NCBI RefSeq assembly: GCF_964213995.1
Contig: NC_135802.1
Location: forward strand, 75,888,001-75,952,000
Origin: Mustelus asterias
Lineage: Eukaryota
Direction: 5' to 3'
Length of the DNA stretch: 64,000 bases
A model generated the notes under the pieces. The model was not told the DNA's origin. It ran no database searches and worked only from the letters and a program-made list of their open reading frames with translations. Position numbers and translations under genes: made by a program. Shown piece after piece: positions 3,165 through 64,000 of this stretch (position 1 is the stretch's first letter; each line of letters begins with the position of its first letter).

Positions 3165-3570
3165 TGCTTGAAGGCTACTATATATGGTTGACAATTCCGA
3201 ACTTCTCAGGTTTGATCCCTGATCTGTGTTAACCTACCTGGTCTCAGCCAGAGCATTGGCAGTGGTGGTCCACACAGAGTAAACAATCCTAGGTTATGAT
3301 GTGGAGATGCCGGCGTTGGACTGGGGTGGGGACAGTAAGAAGTCTCACAACACCAGGTTAAAGTCAACAGGTTTATTTGGAATCATGAGCTTTCGGAGCA
3401 CTGCTCACCTGATGAAGGGACAGCGCTCTGAAAGCTCATGATTCCAAATGAGCTTGTTGGACTTTAACCTGGTGTTGTGAAATTCCTAGGTTAGACAGGG
3501 GACCCGCATTTCTCCTTATGTGAGTTATTCTGTAATGTCCCTTAAAACCGAATAGCCTGCCAGCATTCTG
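3165..3570 (+). mobile_element. Old tRNA-derived SINE remnant (LF-SINE-like), interrupted by a PLE
   Basis: B-box-like ggtttgatccc followed by tctgtgt..tggtctcagcc, and distal cgaatagcctgcc; similarity is recalled, not searched. Confidence 0.4.
3297..3484. mobile_element. Inverted PLE pLTR pair with 10-bp TSD
   Basis: Minus-strand pLTR joined to a plus-strand pLTR at the hammerhead (~3405). TSD tcctaggtta at 3287-3296 and 3485-3494. Confidence 0.85.
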
Positions 3571-5044: not shown

Positions 5045-5316
5045 GTGCACGGTGGCACAGTGGTTAGCATTGCTGCCTCACAGTGCCAGGGACCCGGGTT
5101 CGATTCCCGGCTTGGGTCACTGTCTGTGTGGAGTTTGTACGTTCTCCCCGTGTCTGCGTGGGTTTCCTCCGGGTGCTCCAGTTTCCTCCCACAGTCTGAA
5201 AGACGTGCTGGTTAGGTGCATTGACCTGAACAGGCGCCGTAGTGTGGCGACTAGGTGAATTTCACAGTAACTTCATTGCCTTACTTGTGACTAATAAATA
5301 AACTTTACTTTACTTT
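5045..5316 (+). mobile_element. tRNA-derived V-SINE-type SINE
   Basis: A box tggcacagtgg, B box ggttcgattcc, V-domain gtgtggagtttg..ttctccccgtgtctgcgtgggtttcctcc, (ACTTT)n tail. Confidence 0.9.
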
Positions 5317-5339
5317 CTTTTACCATGGACTCTGTGTGA

Positions 5340-6310
5340 TGAAAGCTACTTCCAAATCACAAGGTGTCCCGGAGACATGTGTGATCATACACTTAGCATC
5401 AGCCAGATCTCATCATCACCAGATGTACCACCCTCAACAGTGCCCTCGTCACTCATAACTATCACCGTGCTAACTATGACACTGACCACTCCCTGGTGCA
5501 TAGTAGGCTCACGGTTCACGCACGCTATAGGAAGCGCTCCAAGAAGGAAAGTCATCCTCAGATTAACACTTGCCATACCACTGATCCAGAAAAGAGCCAG
5601 GAATTCCACAACATCCCCAATCAGCATCTTTTGAGACAACAATGTCCAAGGCCAGAATGCAGAGTCAAAGTGGGTTTATCTGTGTGATACCATTTGTAAC
5701 TCTACACAGCAAAAGAGATCAGAGGAAAGCTGACTGCTTTGAGGCTTTTTGGATTGAAATGGAGGTCCCAGCAAACAAAATCGAGATGCATTCACAGCTG
5801 CCAGTATGGGTTGAAACCCTGTTACAGCAAATGAACTGAATCTGGGATGTTGGAAGGATGTACAAAAATGTAGGGGACCCAGCAGCAACCCAATCAGGCC
5901 CCTGGAAGATAAAGACACGGTTGATCATCACTGAACCTAGCAGGCAAATGGATAGGTGGGTGGAGCACTATCTCGAACTCTGCACAAGGAAAATCCTTGC
6001 CACTGAAGAAGCTGTCAGCTCAGATCCTATCAAGGAGGAGCTAGACAATGAATCCACCTCAGGAGAGCTCCACAACGCCATTGACTGTCTTGTCAGTGAT
6101 AAAACCCCAGGAAACAATGGCTGCCACCTGAATTCATCTAAAGTAAAAAGCAGCACTGCTGCAGCATCTCCATGAACTTCTGTGTCTCTGCTGGAAAGAA
6201 AGATTCGTGCCTCAAAATACGTATGATGCAAAATAGTCACCTTGTACAAAAACAACAGGGATTGCAGTGACTGCAACAATTACTGAGACACTTCCGTGTT
6301 AAGTATCATG
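5340..6310 (+). mobile_element. RTE-clade LINE fragment (decayed)
   Basis: ORF 5858-6175 RWVEHYLEL...EELDNE..GELHNAIDCLVSDKTPGNNG; downstream IVTLYKNNRDCSDCNNY. Confidence 0.75.
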
Positions 6311-6348
6311 AGTCAGTACAATCAGCCAGCATTTTGGAAGTTATTTCT

Positions 6349-6659
6349 TAGAATCCCTACAGTGCAGAAGGAGGCCATTCGGCTCTTCGAGCCTGCATCA
6401 CCAACAATCCCACCCATTATCCCATGTATTTACCCTGCTAATCCCCCTGATACTAAGGGGCAATTTAGCATGGCCAATCAAGCTAATCTGCACATCTTTG
6501 GGCTGTGGGAGGAAACCCATGCAGACGCAGGAAGAACGTGCAAACTCCACACAGACAGTGACCTGAGGCCGGAATTGAACCTGTGTCCCTGGCGCTGTGA
6601 GGCAGCAATGCTGGGTGCTGTGAGGCAGCAGTGCTGACCACTGTGCCACCGTACCGCCC
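6349..6659 (-). mobile_element. HE1-like tRNA SINE (V-domain, CR1-type tail)
   Basis: Reverse strand reads gggcggtacggtggcacagtgg...V-domain...cctccttctgcactgtagggattcta. Confidence 0.9.
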
Positions 6660-7189
6660 CAAATTCTGCTTTAAAGGATAGTCCTTCATATATCTAAGAG
6701 TGATTAAATGGTGCAGTTTGATAAATAAGCTGAAGATGGCTTATTGTAAACAATAATCATTTTTTGCCAATGTATAAATCCACCACCTGATTCTAAATAA
6801 TTGAGAATTTTTTTGAAGAAAAACTATACAAAACCATGCAAAGGGTCTACAATTAAAAACTATGACAACGATCATCCAGACTCAAAACATTAGCCCAGTT
6901 CTCTCTCCACAGATGCTGTCAGACCTGCTGAGATTTTGCAGCATTTTCAGTTTATGTTTCAGGTTCCAGCATCCGCAGTAATTTACTTTTATATAGAACT
7001 ATGTTTGTATTACATAAGTGTAAAGAAGTCACCTTCTTAACGGAGTAAAAAAAAACATTCTAAAGCTTTTGAAACATACCTGTGGTGCCCTGATAAAAGG
7101 CCTATTAAAGTATGCAGTTGGTGGAGATTCACAATGAATATTACTGAAAGGAGACACATGCTGCGACTCAATCAACAGAGTGAGTAGAC

Positions 7190-7630
7190 ACTGTACTCAA
7201 CCAGCCCGCATTTTCAAAACCCCAAAACAAATCTTCTTACTGTTAAATGTGATTCCACGATTGGGCAGCACACACTGAAGCGCACTCTAATAGTTACACT
7301 AACAAGCAATTTAAGAAAATCAGACAACATCATAACATTACACATTTATGCTTGCTAGAAGTGACATGCATTCATTCACAGGGACCCGTTATCTGCAACC
7401 TGAAGGAGTATGTTCAAGCCTTGCATCTTCTTTGAATGAAACCTGGAAGCTAGGGGAGCCCATAGTTCACCTTTGCTTTCTCCATTGCATTACATTGGTT
7501 GCCAAGTCGACTCTGATTAACCAATCAGCATCCCTTTCTCCTGTAGTACAAGCTGTAGTGATCATCTGAAATTTGGCATTTTTGCATTTGTCCTGGAAAG
7601 CTTCAGCAACTTGTCTCTCAGCAATGTTCA
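7190..7630 (+). mobile_element. Penelope-like element fragment, third family (GIY-YIG C-terminus and 3' UTR)
   Basis: Translation ...HLCLLEVTCIHSQGPVICNLKEYVQALHLL*; 3' gtcctg-gaaagcttc resembles a hammerhead with stem II deleted. Confidence 0.55.
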
Positions 7631-8323
7631 AGTTCTGTGCTACTGAGCAACTGTTTGTAAACTCACACTGGCATTTAATTTGATCCTGGTGGGTGGGATG
7701 TCATCCGTTTTGTGGACCGAATCAATTTCTAGGGCAACGTTTATAAACCAGTGCCAAAGATTGTGGAAACTTGATTTGTGCTAGACCTTACTTGCATTTG
7801 AAGTTCTGCAATTGGTTGTGCCGATTTGGCCAATTTCAGACCAATTACATTGAAACAAAAAGCGCCACCTAGCGAAAATTTCAGGAAACAGCCTGGAAGA
7901 TAAAGGCAGAGCAGGTTGAATGTGATTTCATAAGTAGGAAGTTTAAGGTCAGCTGCAGAAGGGCTCACCTTTGTGCACTCGTTGCTGTTTGCCCCAGCAA
8001 GGGTGTGGCACACAATGTTTGTACATCCATCCCCTCTCACTGTTGCAGGATCACATATGTTTCCTTTCTACTGTAGTCTTAAATATGATTGAAGATGAAA
8101 ACACTGTCTAACATATTTCATTGAGTACTTTCAAAGCCTGCCCCTACTCAGTACTGCCATCACAAAGAACATTCCCTGTCTTATCGTGGTGGCCATGCTA
8201 GTGGAGGATGAGATGAGGTGGGGTGGAAATTGTGGTCATACTGGTGCTGTGTGAGAACCTATATGAGTTGGCATATTCATCGTTATGTTGAGTTTGCAGC
8301 CCAAGGCTGTACAGAGCCATATA

Positions 8324-8428
8324 GAGCTCTGGCTGTACAGAGCCACTCACCTGATGAAGGGCAGCACTCCGAAAGCTTGTGCTACCAAATAAACCTGTTG
8401 GACTTTAACCTGGTGTTGTGAGACTTCT
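8324..8428 (+). mobile_element. Short PLE pLTR with hammerhead motif and TSD
   Basis: cacctgatgaagggcagcactccgaaagcttgtg; tacagagccatata duplicated at 8310-8323 and 8429-8442. Confidence 0.8.
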
Positions 8429-8476
8429 TACAGAGCCATATACACAGCTGGCAAATATCCTGTTACTCTCAATACA

Positions 8477-8829
8477 GTAAGAGTTTTAACAACACCATGT
8501 TAAAGTCCAACAGGTTTATTTGGTAGCAAATGCCATTAGCTTTCGGAGTGCTGCTCCTTCGTCAGATGGAGTGGAAATCTGCACTCAAACAGGGCACAGA
8601 GACACAAAATCAAGTTACTGCCAGCATCAGTAGTAAATGCGCCTAGTTTGGGGGCGTTTAAGAGATCCGTAGATAGGTTCATGGACGAAAAGAAATTGGT
8701 TTAGGTTGGAGGGTCACAGTTTTTTTTTTTAACTGGTCGGTGCAACATCGTGGGCCGAAGGGCCTGTTCTGCGCTGTAATGTTCTATGTTCTATGTTCTA
8801 TGTTCTAACGCCGGCATCTCCACATCATG
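8477..8829. mobile_element. Inverted PLE pLTR insertion containing a CR1 3' end (~8620-8806)
   Basis: TSD actctcaataca at 8465-8476 and 8830-8841. Hammerhead motif on the minus strand at 8533-8569. CR1 tail gggccgaagggcctgttctg..(gttctat)n. Confidence 0.8.
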
Positions 8830-8929
8830 ACTCTCAATACACTCATAGTACTAGAGGATGTGAGCCTAATTCTACAACAAGTTGTACTTTTGTCCCCACA
8901 CACCTCACCCCCCACCCCCGCCCCACACA

Positions 8930-9298
8930 CACGGGGCATCTGTCACTTTTTCTTAAGTTTTGCTTTCACAGAGCACCGACCTTTATTCTGCTATTAACAC
9001 ATTCTGCTGTCTTACCTTTCTGCCATCATCTGCACCTTCTCTAGTCCTTAACATTACCGTTGATGCTTCATTTGTCTTGAGTCCCAAACAACTTTGTCCA
9101 CTCTCTCCTAGCTCACTCCTATCCCTGATCTTTTACTTTGTTCCATATTCTCCACCCCCTCTTTAACAGAATAAAATCCATCACATTCCTTCCTCTGTCT
9201 AGCTCTGAAGAAGAGTCATGTGGACTCGAAACATGAACTCAGTTTCTCTCTCTGCTGATGCTGCCAGACCTGCAACATTTTTCCATCATTTTTGTTTT
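8930..9298 (+). mobile_element. PLE 3' UTR/pLTR (second family) with hammerhead motif at ~9204-9235
   Basis: ctgaagaa-gagtc-atgtg-gactc-gaaac followed by gatgctgccagacctgc; related copy on the minus strand at ~15975-16310. Confidence 0.7.
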
Positions 9299-17561: not shown

Positions 17562-18157
17562 TGATGTGGAGATGCCAGCATGGGCTGGGGTGGACACAGC
17601 AAGAAGCCTCACAACACCAGGTTAAAATCCAACATGTTTATCGCTTCTCGGCCTTTTGGCTAAGATCAAGTGTAGTAGCCCATGGTCGGCCGCACTTGTT
17701 TGAGGTCATTAGGTTACGCATATGAAGCAATTTTTAAAAGCAGCATCTCGGCCTTTTGGCTAAGATGCAAATGAGCTCAAGTCTTGGAGGGAGAACCTCC
17801 CCCTCCTCCAATCAGCTTGGCTCATGTAGATCGGGCCCAGGACAGGGTGGTTTGGTCGCTCGCCCTGTCTTGTCAGCCTGGATCGGAAATGTCTCAACTT
17901 GTTGAGACTCTGAATTGGATTTGATTTGATTGAATTGGAAAAGCATTAAAAAAAAATCATGAGCTTTTGGAGCACTGCTCCTTCATCTGGTGAGTGTAGG
18001 TTTCACAAACTTGGCATATATAGACAAAGACACGGCTGGAATGCAAGTCTTTCCAGGTAATCAAGTCTTTCTTTACAGGTACAGACAGTGCGAGTGGAGA
18101 GAGGGATAATCACAGGTTAAAGAGGTGTGAATTGTCTCAAGCCAGGACAGTTAGTTT
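17562..18157 (-). mobile_element. PLE 3' end/pLTR with 11-bp TSD; hosts the U2-headed insert
   Basis: TSD aacattgactg at 17551-17561 and 18158-18168; sequence matches the pLTR at 50590-50855. Confidence 0.85.
17640..17956 (+). mobile_element. U2 snRNA-headed, poly(A)-tailed retroposon (candidate SINEU-like element or chimeric U2 retrocopy)
   Basis: 17640-17677 = ATCGCTTCTCGGCCTTTTGGCTAAGATCAAGTGTAGTA (U2 nt 1-38, exact). Second U2 stem-loop I at 17743-17766. Hairpin-rich body, GATTT-like repeats and an A9 tail. Interrupts a PLE pLTR. Confidence 0.8.
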
Positions 18158-20224: not shown

Positions 20225-21912
20225 ATAAGAACATAAGAACTAGGACTAGGAGTAGGCCATCTAGCCCCTCGAGCCTTCTCCGCCATTCAATAAGATCATG
20301 GCTGATCTTTTAGTGGACTCAGCTCCACTTACCTGCCCGCTCACCATTGCTCTTAATTCCTTTACTGTTCAAAAATTTATCTATCCTTGCCTTAAAAACA
20401 TTCAATGAGGTAGCCTCAACTGCTTCACTGGAATTCCACAGATTCACAACCTTTTGTGTGAAGAAGTTCCTCCTCAACTCAGTCCTAAATCTGCTTCACC
20501 TTATTTTGAGGCTATGCCCACTAGTTCTAATTTCACCCGCCAGTGGAAACAACTTCCCTGCTTCTATCTTATCTATTCACTTCATAATCTTATATGTTTC
20601 TATAAGATCTCCCCTCATTCTTCTGAATTCCAATGAGGGTATAGCCCCAGTCTATTCAGTCTCTCCTCATAAGCCAACCCTCTCAACTCCGAAATCAACC
20701 TAGTGAATCTCCTCTGCACCCCCTCCAGTGCCAGTATATCCTTTTTCAAGTAAGGAGACCAAAACTGTACACAGTACTCCAGGTGTGGCCTCACCAGCAC
20801 CTTATACAGCTGCAACATGATCTCGCTGTTTTTAAACTCCGTCCCTCTAGCAATGAAGGACAAAATTCCATTTGCCTTCTTAATTACCTGCTGCACCTGC
20901 AAACCAACTCCTTGAGATTCCTGCACAAGGGCACCCAGGTCCCTCTGCACAGCAGCATGCTGCAATTTTTTACCATTTAAATAATAGTCCATTTTGCTGT
21001 TATTCCTACCAAAATGGATGACCTCACATTTACCAACATTGTACTCCATCTGCCAGATCCTCGCCCACTCACTTAGACTATCTATATCCCTTTAGACTTT
21101 CAGCGTCCTCTGCACACTGCTCTGCCACCCATCTTAGTGTCATCTGCGAATTTTGACACATTACACTTGGTCCCCAACTCCAAATCATCTATGTAAATCG
21201 TAAACAATTGCAATCCCAACACTGATCCCTGAGGCACACCACTAATTACTGATCGCCAACCAGAAAAACACCCATTTTACCCCCACTCTTTGCTTTCTGT
21301 TAGTTAACCAATCCTCTATCCATGCTAACACATTACCCGTAACACCGTGCACCTTTATCTTATGTAGCAGTCTTTGGAGCGGCACCTTGTCAAATGCCTC
21401 CTGGAAATCCAGATAAACCACTTCCACAGGTTCCCCATTGTCCACTGCACATGTAATGTTCTCACAGAATTCCACCAAATTAGTCAAACATGACCTTCCC
21501 TTCATGAACCCATGCTGCGTTTTACCAATGGGACAATTTATATCCAGATGTCTCGCTATTTCTTCCTTGATGATAGATTCAAGCATTTTCCCTACTACAG
21601 AAGTTAAGCTAACCGGCCTATAGTTACCCGCCTTTTGACTACCTCCTTTTTTAAACAGTGGCGTCACATTTGCTGTTTTCCAATCTGCGGGAACCGCCCC
21701 AGAGTCCAGTGAATTTTGGTAAATTACGACTAGTGCATTTGCTATTTCCCCCACCATCTCTTTCAGTACCTTGGGATGCATTCCATCAGGACCAGGAGAC
21801 TTGTCTACCTTCAGCCCCATTAACTTGCCCAACACTACCTCTTTCGTGATCATGATAGTTTCTAGGTTCTCACCTGCCATAGCCTTCCTGTTATCAATTT
21901 TTGGCATGTTAT
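20225..21912 (-). mobile_element. CR1 LINE, 5'-truncated (RT region and 3' UTR)
   Basis: ORFs 21242-21907 (KSPGPDGMHP, NYRPVSLTS, QHGF, YLDFQEAFDKV) and 20615-21049; (cataagaa)n tail at 20225. Confidence 0.95.
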
Positions 21913-22947
21913 TTGTGGATTGTTTCTGCTTTCACCCCTTCATAGGCAGTGAGTTCCAGGTCATTGCAACTTGAGGAAAAAAATGTTTCATTTTGGCAAT
22001 AGATTCAAGGTGAGTAAAGATCGATTTCTTTATCAAATGGCTGGTAGAAGTTTAACACTCTTTGCCCACCCTGTTCCCCATGAGGAATCTAAGGATCCAA
22101 CAATGGCTGCAGCCATCTTGTGCTCCTCCTATCCAGCTACTGCTCCACAGAGCTCATGGAAGAAGCGATGGTATCCAGGTTCATGTGCATCTCCTGTTTC
22201 CATTGGGTGGTCTGCTGGAAATGGCTCTTTTTGAGAATCACTAATCTCTCAATGGAGGAAGCCGTGCCTGTGGTATTTGAAAAGAGAAGCTGCAGACCGT
22301 AAAGGTATAAAACAAAGTAGAGCTTTTACTGGGGAAGGTGTTGCTCTTGCAGGCCCTTAGATTAGACTGATTGTAAGCCTGGCCCAATTGCTGATGACAT
22401 CATCAGTATGTCATGTGATCAAATTCTTAAAAGGACCTTGCCCCAGCTAGGGACAAACATGAATATACCACAGACCCTTATGCTACAGCTTCAGCATTTA
22501 ACACCTTGCGGATTACTCCACAGGTACATCATCGTTCATCTGACGCTGAGCATCGCTGGTTCCTCCCACAGTCCTCCGAGTGTGTGACCTCAACTATCAC
22601 AGCGTCAGTCAGTTGCTGGGCCACCTCTGTACTATGCTCACTAGATAGTGACCCCAATCCTAACTGCGCATGCCTACTCGTTGATGTGAGAGTATCTGCA
22701 CACTGGTCGAGTGTTTGGGGGAATGTTACTCAACACCATCTGAGACCTCCTCCTCATCCCCCACAGGGGTGGAGGGCTGTCACTCAGCTTCAGTGACCTG
22801 CTCCTCTAGTCTCTGATTTGCAAGACGATAAGACTAATGTGGACCATAAGCTTTTCAATACGTTCTTCTAACTACTCTTGAAGTCTATGTGAGCAGTGGT
22901 GCACACCTCAACACAATATATTGAGCTCACTGGAGAGTCTAATCCCA

Positions 22948-23360
22948 TCATAGAAACATAGAATCTCGAAGTGGGAGTAGGCCATTCAGCCCTTCGAGCC
23001 TGCTCCGCCGTTCATCTTGAACATGTCTGATCATCAAATTCAATATCCTGATCCCCCCTTCCTCACATATCCCTTGATCCCTTTAGCCCCAAGAGCTATA
23101 TCTAATTTCTTCTTGAAATTAGACTACATTTTGGGCTCAACTACATTCTGTGATGTGGAGATGCCGGTGTTGGACTGGGGTGGGCACAATAAGAAGTCTC
23201 ACAACACCAGGGTAAAGTCCAACAGGTTTATTTGGTAGCATGAGCTTTCGGAGCACTGCCCCTTCATCAGGTGAGTCAAAGTGGCCCAGCAACAGACTGA
23301 CGCTGTGATTCTACATTCTGTGGTAGTGAATTCCACACATTCACCATCCTCTGGGTGATC
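22948..23360 (-). mobile_element. CR1 3' end interrupted by a PLE pLTR (23153-23310, TSD ctacattctgtg)
   Basis: TSD at 23141-23152 and 23311-23322; host homologous to 41053-41300. Confidence 0.8.
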
Positions 23361-27545: not shown

Positions 27546-28579
27546 AAGGAGGGAGAATATTGGAGACAGTTGAAGGGATCCATTAAGTGGGGAGAAGACT
27601 CCTGCTCAAAGAAGAGCACAGAAGCGGAGGCGATGAAAGAAGAACATAGTGTTTGTGCCAAGCTCAAAATTCATTGAAGTGGGGATGGAAGGAGATGAAG
27701 CTGAAGCTTTTGCTAAGGCAAAGCTTTCAGAATCAGAGAGGGGAAGATCAGAAAGGTATCTGAAAGGTGGTGAATATACAGCAAGGGTTAGACTTGAGGA
27801 AGAAGGGGTCAGAGGGAAGGGGAGGAAGGATCCAGATGGGTGTTGGTATCCATGAGTTGACAAAGCTTGTGATCGTTCCAACCTTAAAGGAATATAAAGG
27901 TTTTTGGTTAAATTGTCGAATGAGGCAAAGGCTGAAATGGAACTGTGGACCAAGACAGCTTTGAAATAGTGTGAGTCAGTGTTGCTTAAGGGAGAGATGG
28001 AGAGTCTGCATATGGCTTTGAGAGTGTGCTTTAGGATGCAGTAAGTACAGTGGTTTGAGGAGTTCTGGATGTCTTGGAGATATCAAGAAGGGTGAAATTT
28101 AATTTGGAATCCACAAGGAATAAGATCAAACAGGAGACCGTTGCTGAGAAAAGAAATGCAGCTATGGAAGTAGGGTTTTGTTTAGATATCAGATCAAACA
28201 CGAGAAAGGAAATAGAAAGTGAACGATGTAGAAGAGTCAAATGGAAATACCATTGGAGAAAAGAGCAGAGCCTTTACACACTCTGTGAAATGACAGTGAT
28301 TTAAACAACAAATAATATATTAATGTTTTGATTGACATTTTTAGAAGTTATTAAAATAATATCTGTCTTTGATGTGGTCACAGATTGGCCACTTGAAGGG
28401 ATTTATATTTTTTTGATTGGGTTTCATGAAAGAGAGTAATTTTCAGTATCAAATGTGTCTAAGAGTTCAATTAGATTGTTAGAAGCTTATTCTTTATTCA
28501 CCTCCTGATGATTCCTGAGGTTTGCCCATATTGGACACTGGGTGAGTGGCTATAGAGGATACATGGACAACATAGAGGT

Positions 28580-28862
28580 CATGATGTGGAGATGCTGACG
28601 TTGGACTGGGGTGAACACAGTAAGAGTTTTAATAACAACAGGTTAAAGTCCAACAGGTTTATTTGGTAGCAAATGCCATTAGCTTTCGGAGTGCTGCTCC
28701 TTCATCAGATGGAATGGATATCTGCTCTCAAAATTGTCTCTGTATGCCGTGTTTGAGAGCAGATATCCACTCCATCTGACGAAGGAGCAGCGCTTCGAAA
28801 GCTAATGGCATTTGCTACCAAATAAACCTGTTGGACTTTAACCTGGTGTTGTTAAAACTCTT
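28580..28862. mobile_element. Palindromic PLE pLTR pair with hammerhead motifs on both strands; 13-bp TSD
   Basis: Inverted arms ~28620-28732 / ~28752-28864. Hammerheads at 28676-28712(-) and 28772-28808(+). TSD acaacat(a/g)gaggt at 28567-28579 and 28863-28875. Confidence 0.9.
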
Positions 28863-29204
28863 ACAACATGGAGGTGGCATGGGTTGTATTGGGAGTGTTG
28901 ATGTGGCATGGGGATATGGAGGGGATGTGGGATGTGTGTGGGTTGAGGGGGATGAGTTGTGAGGGTTTGAGTGCTTGACATTCATTATTGTAACAGGGCT
29001 GATGACTCAGTTCCAGTCTGCCAGCTTGGTGGCCCACCTCGGATCTGATTCTAGCCCATCCCTGCCTCCCTGGAATGGAAATATGGTCGGCAGGAGCCTT
29101 TTTAAAGGACATGGATCTGCTAGGTCAGGAGAATTCTGGACTTAATCTTCCGACCTCCTCCAAAACAATTTGACCCAATCTTATCTTTATTTGTGAAGCT
29201 GAAG

Positions 29205-33799: not shown

Positions 33800-36070
33800 G
33801 CACCACAATACCTGGAGAATTTAAATGTACTTAATTAGGTAGCAGCAATGGTGGCTATGAAAGTACCAGATTATTGTTCATTGATGCCCTTTAGGTAAGA
33901 AAATCTGCTGTCATTATCCAGTCTGGTCTATATGTGACTCCAGATCCACAGCAATGTAGTTAATTTTCAAAACCCCTTTGAAATGGCCTTGCAAGCCACT
34001 CACTTGTATCAAAATTGTTATGAAAATTAATAAGAATAAAGCCAAATGGACTGCCTGGCAATGACCTGCAGCACCAGACATGACAAACACTCAGTGCATT
34101 GTGCAAAATCCTCCTCACTGTCAGTTGGGGGCTTGTGCCAAGATTGGGAGAGCTGCCCTATAGACTAGTCAAGCAAAAGTCTGACACAGTCATATCCATC
34201 AAATCATACCTTACAACCAATGAACCAAACTCCTCCATCACCATTCCTGGGTATGCCCTGCCCCATCAGCATGACAGACCCACCAGAGGTGATGGAACAG
34301 TGTATACAATTGTCAGGGTGTTGTCCAGGGAGTCCTAAACATTCCAGAACCCATGAAAACTCCAAACATCAGGTCAAACAGTGGGCAAGGAAGCCTTCTG
34401 CTGATTGTCACCCTTCACCTTCCCTCAGCTGATGAATCAACACTTCTCCATGTTAAACAACACTTGGAAGGAGCACTGAATGTAGAGTGGGTGGGTAATG
34501 TCAATGTCTATTTCCAAGAGTGGTTTTCAGTAGCACCACCACTGACCAAATTGGCCTAAACCGGGATCTTGGGTTTATGTCACACTATCAGTAACCCCCA
34601 CAGCTTGCCTCTGGGACTTGCAGAATCTCACTGGCTGTCCTGTCTGGAGGCAATACACATCTCTTTAAACTGTGCTTAATGCTCCCTCCACTCACATTGT
34701 CTGTATCGTTAAGACCTGGTTGGCTGTAGAGATTCGCATTCTAATCAGTATTCTGTAACTTGATTTTGTGTCTCTGTATGCCCTGTTTGAGAGCAGATAT
34801 CCACTCCATCTGACAAAGGAGCAGCGCTCCGAAAGCTAATGACATTTGCTACCAAATAAACCTGTTGGACTTTAACCTGGTGTTGTTAAAACTCTTACCA
34901 AATTGAGTCTATCCAGCATTTTCTATCTTTATTTCAGATTTCTAGCAATTGCAGTATCTTACTGTTGGATCAAATCAAAGCTCTGCTGTTCTGTTATGTC
35001 CTGAAGGTGGACATTAAACAACTAAATGGAGGAGAAAGGTCCACAATGATCCCCACCCTCAGTGATGGGCAAGCCTGGAACATCAGAGCGAAATAAAAAA
35101 CTAAACTGTTTGCAACTGTCTTTAACCATAAGTGTTGAGTGGATGATCTATCTTGGCCTCCTCCTGAGGTTCCATACTCAAAGGTGGAAGTCTTCCAATA
35201 AGTTGATTCACTCCGCTGAGATTAAAAAGAAGCTGGGTACAGCAAAGCTATGGGCCCTAACGACATCCAGTAGTACTGAAAGACGTTTTCCAGAAATAGC
35301 CACACCCCTGGCCAATCTGTTCTAGCACAGTTACCTTACTGGCATCTACCTGACAATGTGGAAAATTGCCCAGTATGTCCCCTTCGCAAAAAGGACAAAT
35401 CAAACCTGGCCAATTACTGCCTCATTGGTCTATTCTGAATAATCAACCACTGACCAGAAACCTAACTGTGTGGGCCACATAAATACTGTCAGAGGCTGGC
35501 TGTGATGAATGGCTCATCACCTGACTCTGGAAAGCCTTTCCACCACCATCTATGAAGTAGATATCAGGAGTATGAAGGACAACTGGATGAGCGCAGCTCC
35601 AACAACACTCCAAGCAGCCAAACACCATTCAGGAGAAACAGCCTGCTTGCTCAGCACCCATTCACAATCTTAAAGATTCATTACCTCCACCACCAGCACC
35701 CAGTAACAGCATTGTGTACTGTCTACAAGATGTACTGTAACACCTCATCAAACCTCCTTTGACTGCAACTTTGACTGCAACTTTGAAACCCTACCACCTA
35801 GAAGAACAAGAGCATCAGGTTAATTGGAGCACTAGAACCTGCAATTTCCCCTTCAAGTCACACACCATCCTGACGTGAAATGATATGGTTATTCCTTCAG
35901 TGTTACTGCACCAAATTCCAGTAATCCCCTTCCTGATAGCACTATGGCTATACCCACACCACGCCGTTTTCAGTGGTTCAAGAATGCAGTTTACCACCAG
36001 TGTTTCAAGGGCAATTGTCAATAAATGTTGGCTTTGCCAATGATGTCCATGCCCCACAAATGAAAAAAGA
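33800..36070 (+). mobile_element. Old CR1/L2-group LINE remnant (endonuclease and RT fragments) interrupted by a PLE
   Basis: ITIPGYAL..HDRPTRGDGTV (APE endonuclease-like); GIYLTMWKIAQ, DKSNLANYCLI; 3' tail shared with the SINE at 33220-33290. Confidence 0.65.
34554..34896 (+). mobile_element. 5'-truncated PLE (ORF end ...LNRDLGFMSHYQ* plus pLTR), 9-bp TSD
   Basis: TSD accaaattg at 34545-34553 and 34897-34905; decayed hammerhead at 34806-34842. Confidence 0.85.
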
Positions 36071-38175: not shown

Positions 38176-39070
38176 TCACCGCCCGCCATCTTTCCTATGG
38201 CTCCTCATAAGGCAGGGCATCCACTCCTCCTCCTCCTTCATCTCCTCCTCCGTCTCCGCCTCCATCTTCACCTCCATCTTTGCCTCCATCTCCTCCTCCT
38301 CCTCCTCCGTCTCCTCCTCCGTCTCCTCCTCCATCTCTCCGTCTTCCCGCTGCTGGGCGATGTTGTGCAGAATGCAGCACACAACTATAATGCGTGAAGC
38401 ATGCACAGGGTCATACTGGAGGCCGCCCCCCCCCATCCCACCCCCAGAGCGGTCCAAGCAGCGGAATCGCATTTTAAGCAGGTCGATGCACCGTTCTATG
38501 ATGAACCAGGTGGCTGCATGGGCCTCGTAGCGAGTCTCTGCCTCGGTCTCTGACGTCTGCACAGGCATCATCAGCTATGACCTTAGTTGGTAACCTTTGC
38601 AATCAGCCTGGACTGGTCTTCAAAGGGGCCAGGATGTCCGACTGCCTGAGGAGAAAGCTGTCATGGACACTCCCTGGATGGCGTGCATCGACCTGCATGA
38701 TCCTCATTAGATGGTCACATACGGTCTGTACATTCAGGGAGTGGAACCCTTTCCTGTTGACAAATTGCTGCGGTCCTGCATGTGGGGCCCACAAGGCGAT
38801 GTGTGTCCCATCCACTGCTCCCTGGACATTGGGAATCCCGGCGATGGAAGCGAAGCCGAGAGCCTGAGCCTCCTGCTGTGCACGGCCCACATCAAAGTTT
38901 ATGTACTGCCCTGGCCGGGCATACAGGGCATCTGTGACCTGCCGCACACATCTGTGCACGGAGGTCTGGGAGATCCCAGCTAGGTCACCACTGGGTGCCT
39001 AAAATGACCAAATGAGAAAAAATTCATGGCAGCCGTCACCTTCACATCAACAGGGAGCGAGTGGCCTGGA
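38176..39070 (-). pseudogene. Harbinger/PIF DDE transposase (HARBI1-like), disrupted
   Basis: LPVDVKVTA..GDLAGISQTSVHRCVRQVT..GAVDGTHI..NRKGFHSLNVQ..PGSVHDS..IERCIDLLKMRFRCLD..CCILHN, with an acidic tail. TATATAAA on the minus strand at 39309-39316; TIR-like gggagaatcgggtcc ending at 39604. Confidence 0.92.
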
Positions 39071-40257
39071 GGGGAAGGCTGAGCAGGACTCCTTCAGGGA
39101 CCCTCACGCAGAGAGCTCTGAGAAAATAGACGCCCCCCCTCTCCCCCAACCCCACCCCTGGTATCACTGGTCTATGGGCCAGCACCTGAAGGCAGCAGGC
39201 GGAAGCCCACCAGGCATCTGCAGGGCCTGTCTGCAACATCCCCCGTGCTCCGCTAGCAGCACTTAACCTCCTCACGCCAGTTCCAGGCTGTCACGCCAGG
39301 TTGAGACCTTTATATATCTACTGTGATTCGCACCAAAGTGACATCATGCCAAAGAGGTGGGAGACGCTAATGTGGGCGGAGATTGCCGTGTCGATCCTGA
39401 TAATGGCATGTTAAAGTATGGTAAGTAATGCCAATCAGTGGCATGTCGGTTTTCAGCGCGGTCCCAGCGGCCCCATTTCTTTCCAGTTGGGAGAGGCGCA
39501 AGGGTCGTAGATGCTCATGGGGATTCGCGAAATGGCCGACACATGCACCTCCCCCGACCTGGTGTGCCAAAAAGTGTGCGCGTCGCGACGGGAGAATCGG
39601 GTCCTTGGTTACTCACTTACGTGTAAAAGATACTTTTCTCAAACATTGTTTGTTGCTTGATTTAGAATTAATAGCTAAATGATTGCTTAAATGAAAAGTG
39701 TTAATAGATTTGGCTATGGGATTGAGTTGACTCAGTTTTCAGTTGACAGGAATAAATTACTGTTTTTGTACCTTGCAGAAACTGTTTAAAACTTTTCCAC
39801 GTCAAAGCAAACACTATTTTTGTTTTTTCTTGCAGCAATACATTGAGTACTTTGTGATCACACTTTGAATTTGCCTAACATAGCTTTAGCAAGACAATTA
39901 TAAGAAAGTTTGTGTCTTGAAACCATTGACACAGTGAATAATGTGGAAGTTCCTGCCACGTGAGTTCTTTTACCCAGTTTCTGATTGTTCAACTTTATTT
40001 GCAATATCTAGCAAACAGTAAACAGCATTGAGGCATCAGATCTACCGTGTACCCTGCCACACCTGTTAATATTCTGAGGGCAAATTTTACAAAATTGATT
40101 TGTGACTTCCAAGTGTTTTCAAAACTCCAGGTTAAGAATCTGGAGGAGAGTCCTGGTAGGAGTAAACGTCTGAAGTATCTGGCCAGTTAGAATTCAAGAC
40201 AGATAAATATTATATTGAACCGGGATGAGGTTCCTGTTCATATTTTTCATTGAACAT

Positions 40258-40497
40258 GGGCAGGATTCCCTGGCTGTTCACGCCAGTGGGATTCTCTAGC
40301 TGTTCACGCCAGTGGGATTCTCTAGCTGTTCACGCCAGTGGGATTCTCTAGCTGTTCACGCCAGTGGGATTCTCTGGCTGTTCACGCCAGTGGGATTCTC
40401 TGATCCTGCTACAGTAAGCTGACATTTGGCTGAGGGAGAAATTCTTCATCTTCGCTTGCAGCGGCAGCAGGGCGTGAATGGCCAGAGAATTCTGGCC
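40258..40497. mobile_element. Harbinger-type MITE with TSD CAT and a 5 x 26-bp internal tandem array (40273-40402)
   Basis: cat|gggcaggattccc...gagaattctggcc|cat; unit gctgttcacgccagtgggattctcta. Confidence 0.85.
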
Positions 40498-49808: not shown

Positions 49809-50587
49809 TTATTGTTGCTCAATTATCAGACTGCTTATCCAACTTCCAGTATTGAATAAGCAGACATTCTCTTCAATTAAATATCGCACTCCAGATGTAT
49901 TTAATTGAGACCTGAGAAAAAGCTTAGAATGGTCTTCAGGCACTTCTGTTCTGGTATCCTGTCCGTGTGAGGTCATTGGAATTGTACTCAGTCACAGGCT
50001 CCAAACAAATTTAGGCCATAATGTGATTTTAAAATGCTATATAGATTTTATTTGCTAATTCAATACAGCTGGAACTGAAAATAATACAGAACATTCATAA
50101 AATCAAAGAAAGATTGTCTAAAAGGTGAAATGCCGATGTAACCTTAGCTATAAATAGCATCAAGTTCTAAAACACTCCAAGCAGCTGCTTGCTATTAGGT
50201 GTCATTTTGTACTGTTTAATTATTTTGGACTTCTGGTTTTCTGCCTTGAGAAGCTAATAACCAAATGTTCATGGTGAAATGTTGTATCCACCCACGTCCT
50301 GACCTGAACATAGTCATGCGTAGTTTGTGTCTTCTCAATAGACAGGGTTCGCATAAACAGTTATCTATTATAATTGTAGGACACATATTGTTTACAGCAG
50401 GACTTACCTTAAAGGTTTGATTGAGCTCACTAATTCTGGTGAATTTTTTATTGCTCATCAATTTATATTGAAACTTATTTTGTTTAACCTGCCTTACAAA
50501 TATCAACAATAAAAAAACTGGAGTTTCCTTTGTAGTCCCATTTGACTAAAATTGACATACATAGCAGAAAACAGAGCTATTAGTGGA

Positions 50588-51473
50588 GGCACAGTAAGAA
50601 GTCTCACAACACCAGGTTAAAGTCCAATAGGTTTTTTGGTAGCACAAGCTTTCAGAGCACTGCTCCTTCAGCAGGTGAGTGAAGAGTTGGGTTCACAAAC
50701 AGGAGACATATAGACAGACTCAATTTACAAGATAATGGTTGGAATGCGAGCCTTAACAGGTAATCAGGTCTTTACAGGTACAGATAATGCGAGTGGAGAG
50801 AGGGTTAAGTACAGGTTACAGAGGTGTGAATTGTCTCAAGCCAGGACAGTTAGTGAGATTTTGCAAGCCCAGGCATGTCGTGGGAGTTACAGATAGTGCG
50901 ACATGAACCCGAGGTCCTGGTTGAGGCCGTCCTCATGTGTGCGGAACTTGGCTATCAGTTTTTGCTCGGCGATTTGCATTGTCGTGTGTCGTGAAGGCCA
51001 CCTTGGAGAACGCTTACCCGAAGATCAGAGATTGAATGCCCGTGACTGCTGAAGTGTCCCCCGACAGGAAGGGAGCACTCCTGCCTGGTGATTGTTGAGT
51101 GGTGTTCATTCATCCATTGTCATAGTGTCTGAATGGTCTCGCCAATGTACCATGCCTCGGGGTATCCTTTCCTGCAGCTTACCAGGTAGACAAGGTAGGC
51201 CGAGTCGCAAGAGTATGTACTGTGTATCTGGTGGATGATCTCACGTGAGATGATGGCATCCGTGTCGATGATCTTGCACGTCTTGCAGAGGTTCCTGTGG
51301 CAGGGTTGTGTGGTGTTGTGGTCACTGTCCTCCTGAAGGCTGCATAGTTTGCTGCGGACAATGGTCTGTTTGAGGTTGCGCGGTTGTTTGAAGGCAAGTC
51401 GTGTGGGTGTGGGGATGGCCTTGGCGAGATGTTTGTCTTCATCGATGACATGTTGAAGGCTCTGGAGAAGATG
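50588..51473 (-). mobile_element. Penelope-like element 3' part: GIY-YIG endonuclease and pLTR
   Basis: LAFKQPRNLKQTIVRS..CKTC..CDSAYLVYLVSCRKGYPEAWYIGET..H..LPVGGHF..GLNQDLGFMSHYL* (stop 50887-50889). Confidence 0.9.
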
Positions 51474-62971: not shown

Positions 62972-63365
62972 ATGTGGAGATGCTGGCGTTGGACTGGGGT
63001 AAACACAGTAAGAAGTTTAACAACACCAGATTAAAGTCCAACAGGTTTATTTGGTAGCAAAAGCCACAAGCTTTCGGAGCCTTAAGCTCCTTCTGTAGAA
63101 ACTTGATGTCTGTGTCGATATGCGCGATCTTCTTGGAGATCCTCTCCACTTGGAGCCGGCAGTTTGCAGTGTCGATGGTAGTCATGATGTGGAGATGCCG
63201 GCGTTGGACGGGGGTGAACATAGTAAGAAGTTTAACAACACCAGATTAAAGTCCAACAGGTTTATTTGGTAGCAAAAGCCACAAACTTTCGGAGCCTTAA
63301 GCTTAAGGCTCTGAAAGCTTGTGGCTTTTGCTACCAAATAAACCTGTTGGACTTTAACCTGGTGT
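62972..63365 (-). mobile_element. Mini PLE (pLTR-ORF start-pLTR) with terminal fold-back; 12-bp TSD
   Basis: TSD agtcaatttgta at 62960-62971 and 63366-63377; MTTIDTANCRLQVERISKKIAHIDTDIKFLQ; palindrome centre ccttaag|cttaagg at ~63301. Confidence 0.9.
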
Positions 63366-64000
63366 AGTCAATTTGTACATCGCAATATGAAGTGACAGCT
63401 AATGTGTGTGATTTTCCAGCACTGCCGAGATTGTCCGGTCCTGCTGAAAGTCATTGGGCGGAAAAAGTCATAAAATGGGGTGTGATGTGACTAGCGGGAA
63501 TGGTGCCTGTTTTTGCGCCCATTCCCATTTTACCAAGAAAAAAAATCAGTGCGATCGGGACCCTGCCCAAAATGGGTGAAACATCAATTTGCATTTTTTT
63601 GCATTCATCACAATGTAATTAGTGAGCTTCACTCCCAATCGTCCCAGCTCACCTACCTTAACCACCTCGTTTGCAGCCGGATTGGTCAGGAAAACACCTC
63701 AAGTATAAAAGTCGGTTTCAGGCACTTGATCCGTGAGAGTGAGTGAGAAGGTAAGTCTCTGCTTTCAAACTGCTCCATGCTGCTCAGGAGGGGTTGTTTC
63801 ATGGTGATCATGTTGAGTTTCGGGTCGGAGAGGGCCTGCGAGTGTGTGGGGGGATGGGGGGCTGTTGTTGTTCATGGGATCTGACTTTGGCCTCTCAGCA
63901 CAGATCCGGATCAGAGTGCTGACCTTGGGTCTTAGCGCTGACTCTGGGTCCTCGTGCAGGCAGCAGCAGGCACAGTGGCTAGTGGGGAATGGGCTGGTGC

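Follow-up and report, generated by a model that had tools for sequence, protein, structure and literature searches.

Three crocodilian families, named SINEU-1 to SINEU-3, carry heads derived from spliceosomal snRNAs and are mobilised by the LINE Tx1-Mar, and none is placed outside crocodilians in the available text of their description (Kojima 2015, PMC4494074). Since the promoters of U1 and U2 stand upstream of the transcribed RNA, a retrotransposed copy leaves them behind; how these elements are transcribed was left there as an open question, and a dependence on flanking transcription was suggested. The same source, in the text available, describes snRNA-L1 chimeras and tailless U2 retropseudogenes, in which a 5' fragment of U2 was retrotransposed with other sequence, as in the element analysed here. 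The retrotransposons Keno (Tx1 clade, APE endonuclease) and Utopia (RLE endonuclease) are described in PMC4640811, in the sections consulted, as leaving U2 nt 39 directly after the insertion and as standing in tandem in U2 arrays, which also holds for the insertions reported below. R2 and R2/R1 SIDEs, according to the accessible part of PMC3414825, resemble our element in being non-autonomous, in occupying the multicopy RNA gene site of their LINE and in relying on the host transcript. In the literature searched, with subscription papers, Repbase and Dfam outside its scope, we found no description of a U2-headed SINE in cartilaginous fish, and the available portions of PMC5381603 and PMC7245038 named none of this kind.

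The window, a 64,000-nt stretch of the genome of the shark Mustelus asterias, contains one copy of such an element at 17640..17956 on the plus strand. The first head (17640..17677) is an exact match to U2 nt 1-38, as the first-pass annotation had stated, when set against the U2 genes of this genome, and it matched the Rfam U2 model with 48.3 bits (E 1.4e-07); a search of the element against Rfam at E values up to 1 returned only U2, other known RNAs and ribozymes being absent. All further parts lie on the same strand. The head is followed by a spacer (17678..17723), which duplex energies and RNAalifold suggest to be the head copied in antisense, now degenerate and with a predicted pairing to the head itself, and by AATTTTTAAAAG with a T5 run (17729..17740), which looks like an Sm site by eye and would act as a Pol III stop. 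A second U2-derived fragment, nt 4-27, occupies 17743..17768, where GCATCT/AGATGC closes a longer hairpin; the stretch after the head had been taken for about 270 nt of non-U2 sequence, and this needs correction, since 17743-17766 matches U2 at 23/24 positions. The body (17772..17908) comprises three hairpins (17772-17824, 17829-17884 and 17891-17908) predicted from the fold z-score and a 16-copy alignment. The element ends at 17913..17956 in GATTT-like repeats, the family tail and A9, and AATAAA is absent; the GATTT-like stretch (17913-17939) and the A9 (17948-17956) are both where they had been noticed. In sister copies the family tail reads GAAAAGTA-Tn-An. The window copy differs from the body column majority by 2.0% and from its sisters by two private internal deletions. 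After the head, sisters usually match U2 up to nt 39 and continue with TGGTCGGCA, which is missing from the window copy; the sharp stop right after the branch-point-binding segment, remarked on earlier, is in this copy aided by the private deletion.

The copy interrupts a repeat that was recognised by BLAST to sister copies (repeat family D3), leaving a left part at 17562..17639, to which no strand was assigned, and a right part with a decayed hammerhead-type core at 17957..17995 on the minus strand. Many copies of this repeat lie within the window. Its minus strand carries a minimal hammerhead-type core (CTGANGA...CGAAAG in sisters, decayed at the insertion), for which the Rfam models gave no hammerhead call, and its label as Penelope-like comes from this motif together with the consulted part of PMC4209133. 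Compared with the repeat copy at about 3360-3392, the insertion removed TTGG (4 nt) if the shared AT and AA belong to the target, and otherwise at most 8 nt. Short hammerhead-core (Penelope-like) repeats, often as inverted pairs, were also seen in the window at 274-691, 3292-3487, 8343-8616 and 23151-23275, with others at 28577-28873, 34766-34907, 50576-50681 and 62972-63371, and they were present in every U2 array unit examined. Elsewhere in the window we observed a decayed CR1-type RT on the minus strand (20495-21931), whose best named relatives were from Callorhinchus milii (64%), ahead of turtles (52-56%), as would fit a cartilaginous fish; a 103-nt inverted repeat with perfectly abutting arms of 92% identity (1819-2024), with miRNA-model matches below threshold; a 26-nt tandem repeat (40237-40427); and a 12-nt CCT-rich tandem array (38214-38351).

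A search of the animal's own genome (3.68 Gb) returned 2,502 candidates, and among the 40 that were scored there were 39 other near-full-length copies at 90-93%, some of them segmental duplicates. A 21-mer of the head had 4,249 exact matches in the genome and a 21-mer of the body 2,042, with 0 for both controls. Among the first 30 head matches, 29 ran into the same body, at 74-94% to a young copy, and on these two figures we estimate a family of about 4,000 copies that, judged by their sequences, appears young, dispersed and SINE-like. The 135,653 Rfam 'candidates' were rejected as a copy number, being noise. The remaining head match (L229, C1 at about 5.312 Mb) is an old one-head relative in which the U2 head runs straight into the final two hairpins, the whole being split by another repeat, and it is a candidate for the ancestral form. 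Family copies measured 317-335 nt. When the body 21-mer list was followed in genome order for 90 loci, 75 of them retained a head; 23 of these began at U2 nt 1 and 52 further in, as 5' truncation produces. Target site duplications (TSDs) of 8-24 nt flanked 42 of the 80 copies with a parsed tail, 10 of the 90 loci having been dropped, and the two longest were ambiguous. A target deletion of about 4-6 nt without TSD had been described for the window copy; it indeed has no TSD and has lost 4-8 nt, but against these 42 of 80 copies with at least 8 nt the absence is atypical.

Divergence from the column majority had a median of 1.0% (173 distinct copies, 197/216 body columns) in a sample biased toward young copies, and the subfamilies vary chiefly at the post-head junction and in the hairpin loops. 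Apart from segmental duplicates and target repeats, the dispersed copies had no common upstream flank. A strong target consensus at dispersed sites was considered and rejected, because 42 sites showed only A|T-rich positions beside the nick, in part by construction. At four loci (L028, L141, L085 and L160) we saw trains of 3-5 or more SINE copies of mixed subfamilies with short target duplications between them. The junction and tail recur in thousands of copies, and the window copy is therefore not a one-off chimera, in agreement with what had been expected of it.

The fold of the window copy was more stable than those of its shuffles (z -5.15). Its head-spacer duplex reached -25.2 kcal/mol against a shuffle mean of -16.8, with 6 of 500 shuffles as good, and U2 nt 28-34 were predicted to pair with a probability of at least 0.97. 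In six diverse copies, the 46-70 nt located 3' of the head were predicted to pair with it, with duplex energies from -27 to -39 kcal/mol where shuffles averaged -15 to -21; none of 500 shuffles was as good in five of these copies, and 5 of 500 were in the sixth. From these energies the spacer probably arose long ago as an inverted copy of the head, and is predicted to hide most of the branch-point/U6-pairing region of U2. A derivation of the spacer and AATTTTTAAAAG from U2 39-112, now decayed but with its Sm site, was not accepted (p 0.06 against shuffles); an antisense head copy is the better fit. In 16 diverse copies, RNAalifold retained the head-spacer helix, the second-head hairpin and the three body hairpins, mostly through G-U-tolerant changes, and across subfamilies in this alignment the body stems were conserved and the loops variable. 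Selection on RNA structure is suggested by the models and not proven, because two-sided compensatory change was found in only 1 of 78 predicted pairs. Two other results were set aside: a stem-versus-loop test, in which pairing was kept in 13/21 recurrent stem alleles and 34/104 rare ones, had a poor consensus fold, and 117/122 perfect head-spacer helices came from a regex that favoured pairing letters.

The U2 genes of this genome form arrays on C24 (42.98-43.07 and 44.81-44.94 Mb), with units of 1.83 kb and 8.0 kb, and a variant U2 (U2b, sharing about 87% with the main U2 across nt 39-185) forms 449-bp units on C21. We found three SINE copies in situ, all at nt 38/39 and next to Keno-type LINEs; this is the position given as the Keno/Utopia insertion site in the consulted part of PMC4640811. 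At the end of the 1.83-kb array (U2a) on C24, the upstream DNA was identical at 300/300 positions to that of the adjoining intact gene, and was followed in order by U2 1-38 with a one-head SINE variant, a degenerate U2 39-55, a 5'-truncated LINE, the next U2 39-55, a two-head SINE and U2 39-191. In the U2b cluster, several LINE copies and one SINE were each followed by U2 nt 39, and the SINE lay between U2b upstream DNA (255/258 versus the intact neighbour) and U2b 39-191. Loci with U2 upstream DNA before the element and U2 nt 39 onward after it, which the first-pass annotation had predicted, thus exist. The in-situ TSDs end at U2 nt 52-58. The in-situ copies show 1-3% divergence and dispersed copies with 0% exist, so today's master copy is not seen in the assembly, and no in-situ copy of the window's subfamily was among those found. 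By eye, no clear PSE or 3' box emerged when the U2 upstream DNA of the in-situ loci was set against U1 upstream DNA.

Other features of the U2 arrays were also observed. At C24 44.81-44.94 Mb (L062-L065), U2 matches recur every 8.0 kb across about 120 kb, and the tandem unit consists of an intact U2 gene and a second U2 into which a full-length Keno-type LINE has inserted; a tRNA-SINE-like insert breaks ORF2 of that LINE, so a dead LINE has been amplified with the array. The U2b cluster (C21 28.05-28.08 Mb, L209-L212) differs from the main U2 in upstream sequence and is heavily invaded by Keno-type LINEs. In the 1.83-kb array (L055 at 5124-9018, L057 and L058), several U2 copies have an internal duplication of about nt 18-37 beside the Keno site, and these may be traces of abortive insertions that turnover of the array has multiplied.

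The LINE that occupies these U2 genes, with U2 nt 39 directly after it, encodes in ORF1 two ZCCHC3-type RRMs and CCHC knuckles and in ORF2 APE, RT and zf-RVT domains (Pfam). Relatives of its RT stood at 41-45%, among them a protein of zebrafish labelled 'transposon TX1' and an RT of fugu (44% across the region used as query). It fits the Keno of PMC4640811, as far as that source was available, by target and domains, and the name 'Keno-type' rests on these two features because none of its protein matches was labelled Keno. A motif from the LINE 3' end had 240 exact genome matches, and U2 39 onward followed it at 0 of the first 30 dispersed loci; the specificity of this LINE is therefore relaxed, which sets it apart from Keno, and the SINE differs from both in being non-coding and without detectable LINE sequence. 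A second, older Keno-like lineage, at 75-82% to the young one, was seen on C24 at 41.74-41.76 and 42.98 Mb (L068, L070 and L051); some of its members are tandem forms that lack internal sequence and have a U2 head and U2 39/40+ at the flank, and these are possible true SIDEs.

The SINE and the LINE share relaxed targets as well. A SINE lay within 1.5 kb of 9 of the 30 dispersed LINE loci, with about 0.4% expected by simple arithmetic, and a family copy stood at most 60 nt downstream of 14/80 SINEs and 5/29 LINEs. Most of these tandems were joined between U2 coordinates -13 and +7 with both members in one orientation; in two the orientation was inverted and the junction fell at 43-44. The upstream member was the less diverged in 20 of 26 tandem pairs, so that new insertions tend to arrive immediately 5' of an old head. 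The AATAAAC of the hammerhead-bearing repeat was a second hot spot, with 71 matches, 41 of them on C1-C26; nine of the ten checked were SINE tails, and about 2 would be expected from one site every 8.7 kb, an estimate without correction for A-rich priming. The window copy sits at this same AATAAAC in the opposite orientation, as does one LINE.

Some dispersed copies carry DNA from the U2 arrays. A pattern joining the SINE tail to U2 39 onward had six genome matches, two in situ and four in dispersed cassettes (control, 0). In these cassettes and in the matches of a related search, L071, L214, L216 and L217 among them, spacer and upstream DNA of a variant U2 lie alongside the SINE. At L217, a 17-nt TSD encloses 1.7 kb with three SINEs; L214 combines U2 12-46, upstream DNA from -93 to -1 and the SINE between the copies of a 16-nt TSD; TSDs are present at L071 and L072, and none was seen around the cassette in L216. 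The last five bases upstream of U2a, joined to head and spacer, matched four times, once in situ and three times at dispersed sites. In a further 14 dispersed copies (13 + 1 matches), a U2 extension 5' of the head ended at nt 47-55, a range partly constrained because the search pattern could see ends only up to about nt 77. These 14 cover old and young junction types and many subfamilies, including the window's own (L291). Non-transcribed array DNA is not obtainable by a template switch onto mature U2 RNA, and its presence requires that SINEs standing in U2 arrays were transcribed and then copied again.

Comparing these sequences, we consider it probable (about 0.72) that source copies of the family reside in U2 genes, use the U2 promoter of the host for their transcription and are copied by the Keno-type Tx1 LINE. 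A source would stay, perhaps transiently, in a U2 gene, where Pol II would start at U2 +1, so that the head would be the first 38 nt of the host gene and no internal promoter would be used. The spacer would fold over the head and is predicted to stop the RNA from acting as U2. The ORF2 protein of the LINE would prime on the A-tract and insert the cDNA, occasionally into a U2 gene, giving a new source with a TSD from U2 39 to about 47-58. Most insertions would fall at relaxed sites, such as just upstream of older copies, the AATAAA of the hammerhead-bearing repeat, or elsewhere. Within a U2 gene, a 5'-joined copy that follows its own TSD would gain an extra head, which would explain the fixed second head. 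Dispersed copies such as that in the window would be promoter-less dead ends.

The heads could instead have been added by template switching of the RT onto U2 snRNA, as the consulted part of PMC4494074 proposes for the 5' extensions of SINEU-2, with sources mostly dispersed and read from flanking promoters and the U2-gene insertions as dead ends. The in-situ copies number only 3 and none is the youngest, and the U2 extension is rare (1/75 headed copies), as such a process would have it. We nevertheless regard it as unlikely: it does not supply the non-transcribed U2-array DNA in the retrocopies, the extension ends agree with the in-situ TSD lengths, and dispersed copies read from flanking promoters lack a common upstream flank, segmental duplicates and target repeats aside. 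Transcription from the head itself is the least probable of the readings considered. Loose A-box-like (TGGCTAAGATC) and B-box-like (GGTYGAGGTC) words, judged by eye against the consensus, would make head and spacer an internal Pol III promoter and every full copy a potential source, but the T4 at U2 nt 15-18 and the T5 at 17731-17735 would stop Pol III, and Kojima argued likewise for SINEU in the text available (PMC4494074).

The choice of machinery and the origin of the body were judged by comparison with the LINE. The SINE body showed no detectable similarity to the UTRs of the Keno-type LINE, 3' homology being limited to a vague tail (p 0.40), and we rejected a derivation of the body from a Keno UTR, since comparisons with the sense 5' UTR, the 3' UTR, the inter-ORF region and the whole LINE were all at chance (p 0.40-0.91). 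This lack of body and 3' UTR homology, and an excess of SINE over the LINE 3' motif of about 17-fold (4,249 versus 240 exact matches), would suit a U2-gene-sourced family mobilised by another Tx1 or L1 family. Such a partner is improbable in our judgement, as the exact nt 38/39 site, the TSD lengths, the relaxed targets and the interleaving are all common to the SINE and the Keno-type LINE. The same chance-level sense comparisons make it very improbable that the element is an internally deleted, SIDE-like Keno and so a non-autonomous LINE, although R2 SIDEs have the same target sharing and host-promoter dependence (PMC3414825, accessible part), one of eight tests gave p 0.01, for an antisense match with the 5' UTR of the LINE, and an older Keno lineage could be the donor. 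The proposal of a non-autonomous derivative of a U2-targeting element thus holds for the machinery and fails for the origin of the sequence, the body being unlike the UTRs of the Keno-type LINE.

The shark family agrees with SINEU in every class-level feature tested, which supports the SINEU-like option of the first-pass annotation. It has a U2 head (nt 1-38 exact, plus 4-27), is below 500 bp, non-coding, A-tailed, dispersed and multicopy, shows TSDs or target truncation and 5' truncation, and has a target preference in common with a Tx1-clade LINE. As far as PMC4494074 was available, the two also agree in the repeated addition of U2-derived heads, the internal oligo-T, copies in thousands, tandem copies sandwiching a TSD, a Keno-related Tx1 partner and a secondary preference for one repeat. 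Against the same text, the shark family is unlike SINEU in having copies inside U2 genes at nt 38/39, which are not reported there, in a partner that targets U2 where that of SINEU targets Mariner-N4_AMi, and in its spacer, predicted to lie antisense over the head, its lack of any U1 part that we noticed, and its cartilaginous-fish host. From SINEU-2 (U1 and U2) and SINEU-3 (internally deleted U2; shuffle p 0.06) it is set apart by their description only, taken from that text. The snRNA-L1 chimeras are treated in it as one-off events, whereas this SINE is a family with common junctions and subfamilies. In the accessible part of PMC3414825, SIDEs are LINE-derived, with a 5' ribozyme and rDNA sites; the SINE has a piece of a host gene's 5' end as its head, no Rfam ribozyme, more than 99% of its copies dispersed, and no homology to the partner LINE at both of its ends of the kind that defines SIDEs. 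It is likewise no classical Pol III SINE, as T4 and T5 are internal and the head is not tRNA, 5S or 7SL.

If this reading is true, an snRNA-headed SINE would for the first time be known from a non-crocodilian, and for the first time together with its source loci and partner LINE. We lean slightly toward a wider interpretation, in which the snRNA head is the 5' end of a parasitised host gene and the sources cycle through U2 arrays, mask the head and seed dead copies that attract further SINE and LINE insertions. The genome would then offer, at named loci, a concrete and testable answer to how SINEU-type elements get transcribed, and Keno targeting and SINEU heads, which were described separately, would become linked. 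This suggests that snRNA-headed SINEs may arise repeatedly wherever a U2-targeting LINE lives. Such a young family (median divergence 1% in the young-biased sample) would provide insertion markers, and a vertebrate LINE with site preference would have in it a naturally occurring non-autonomous cargo.
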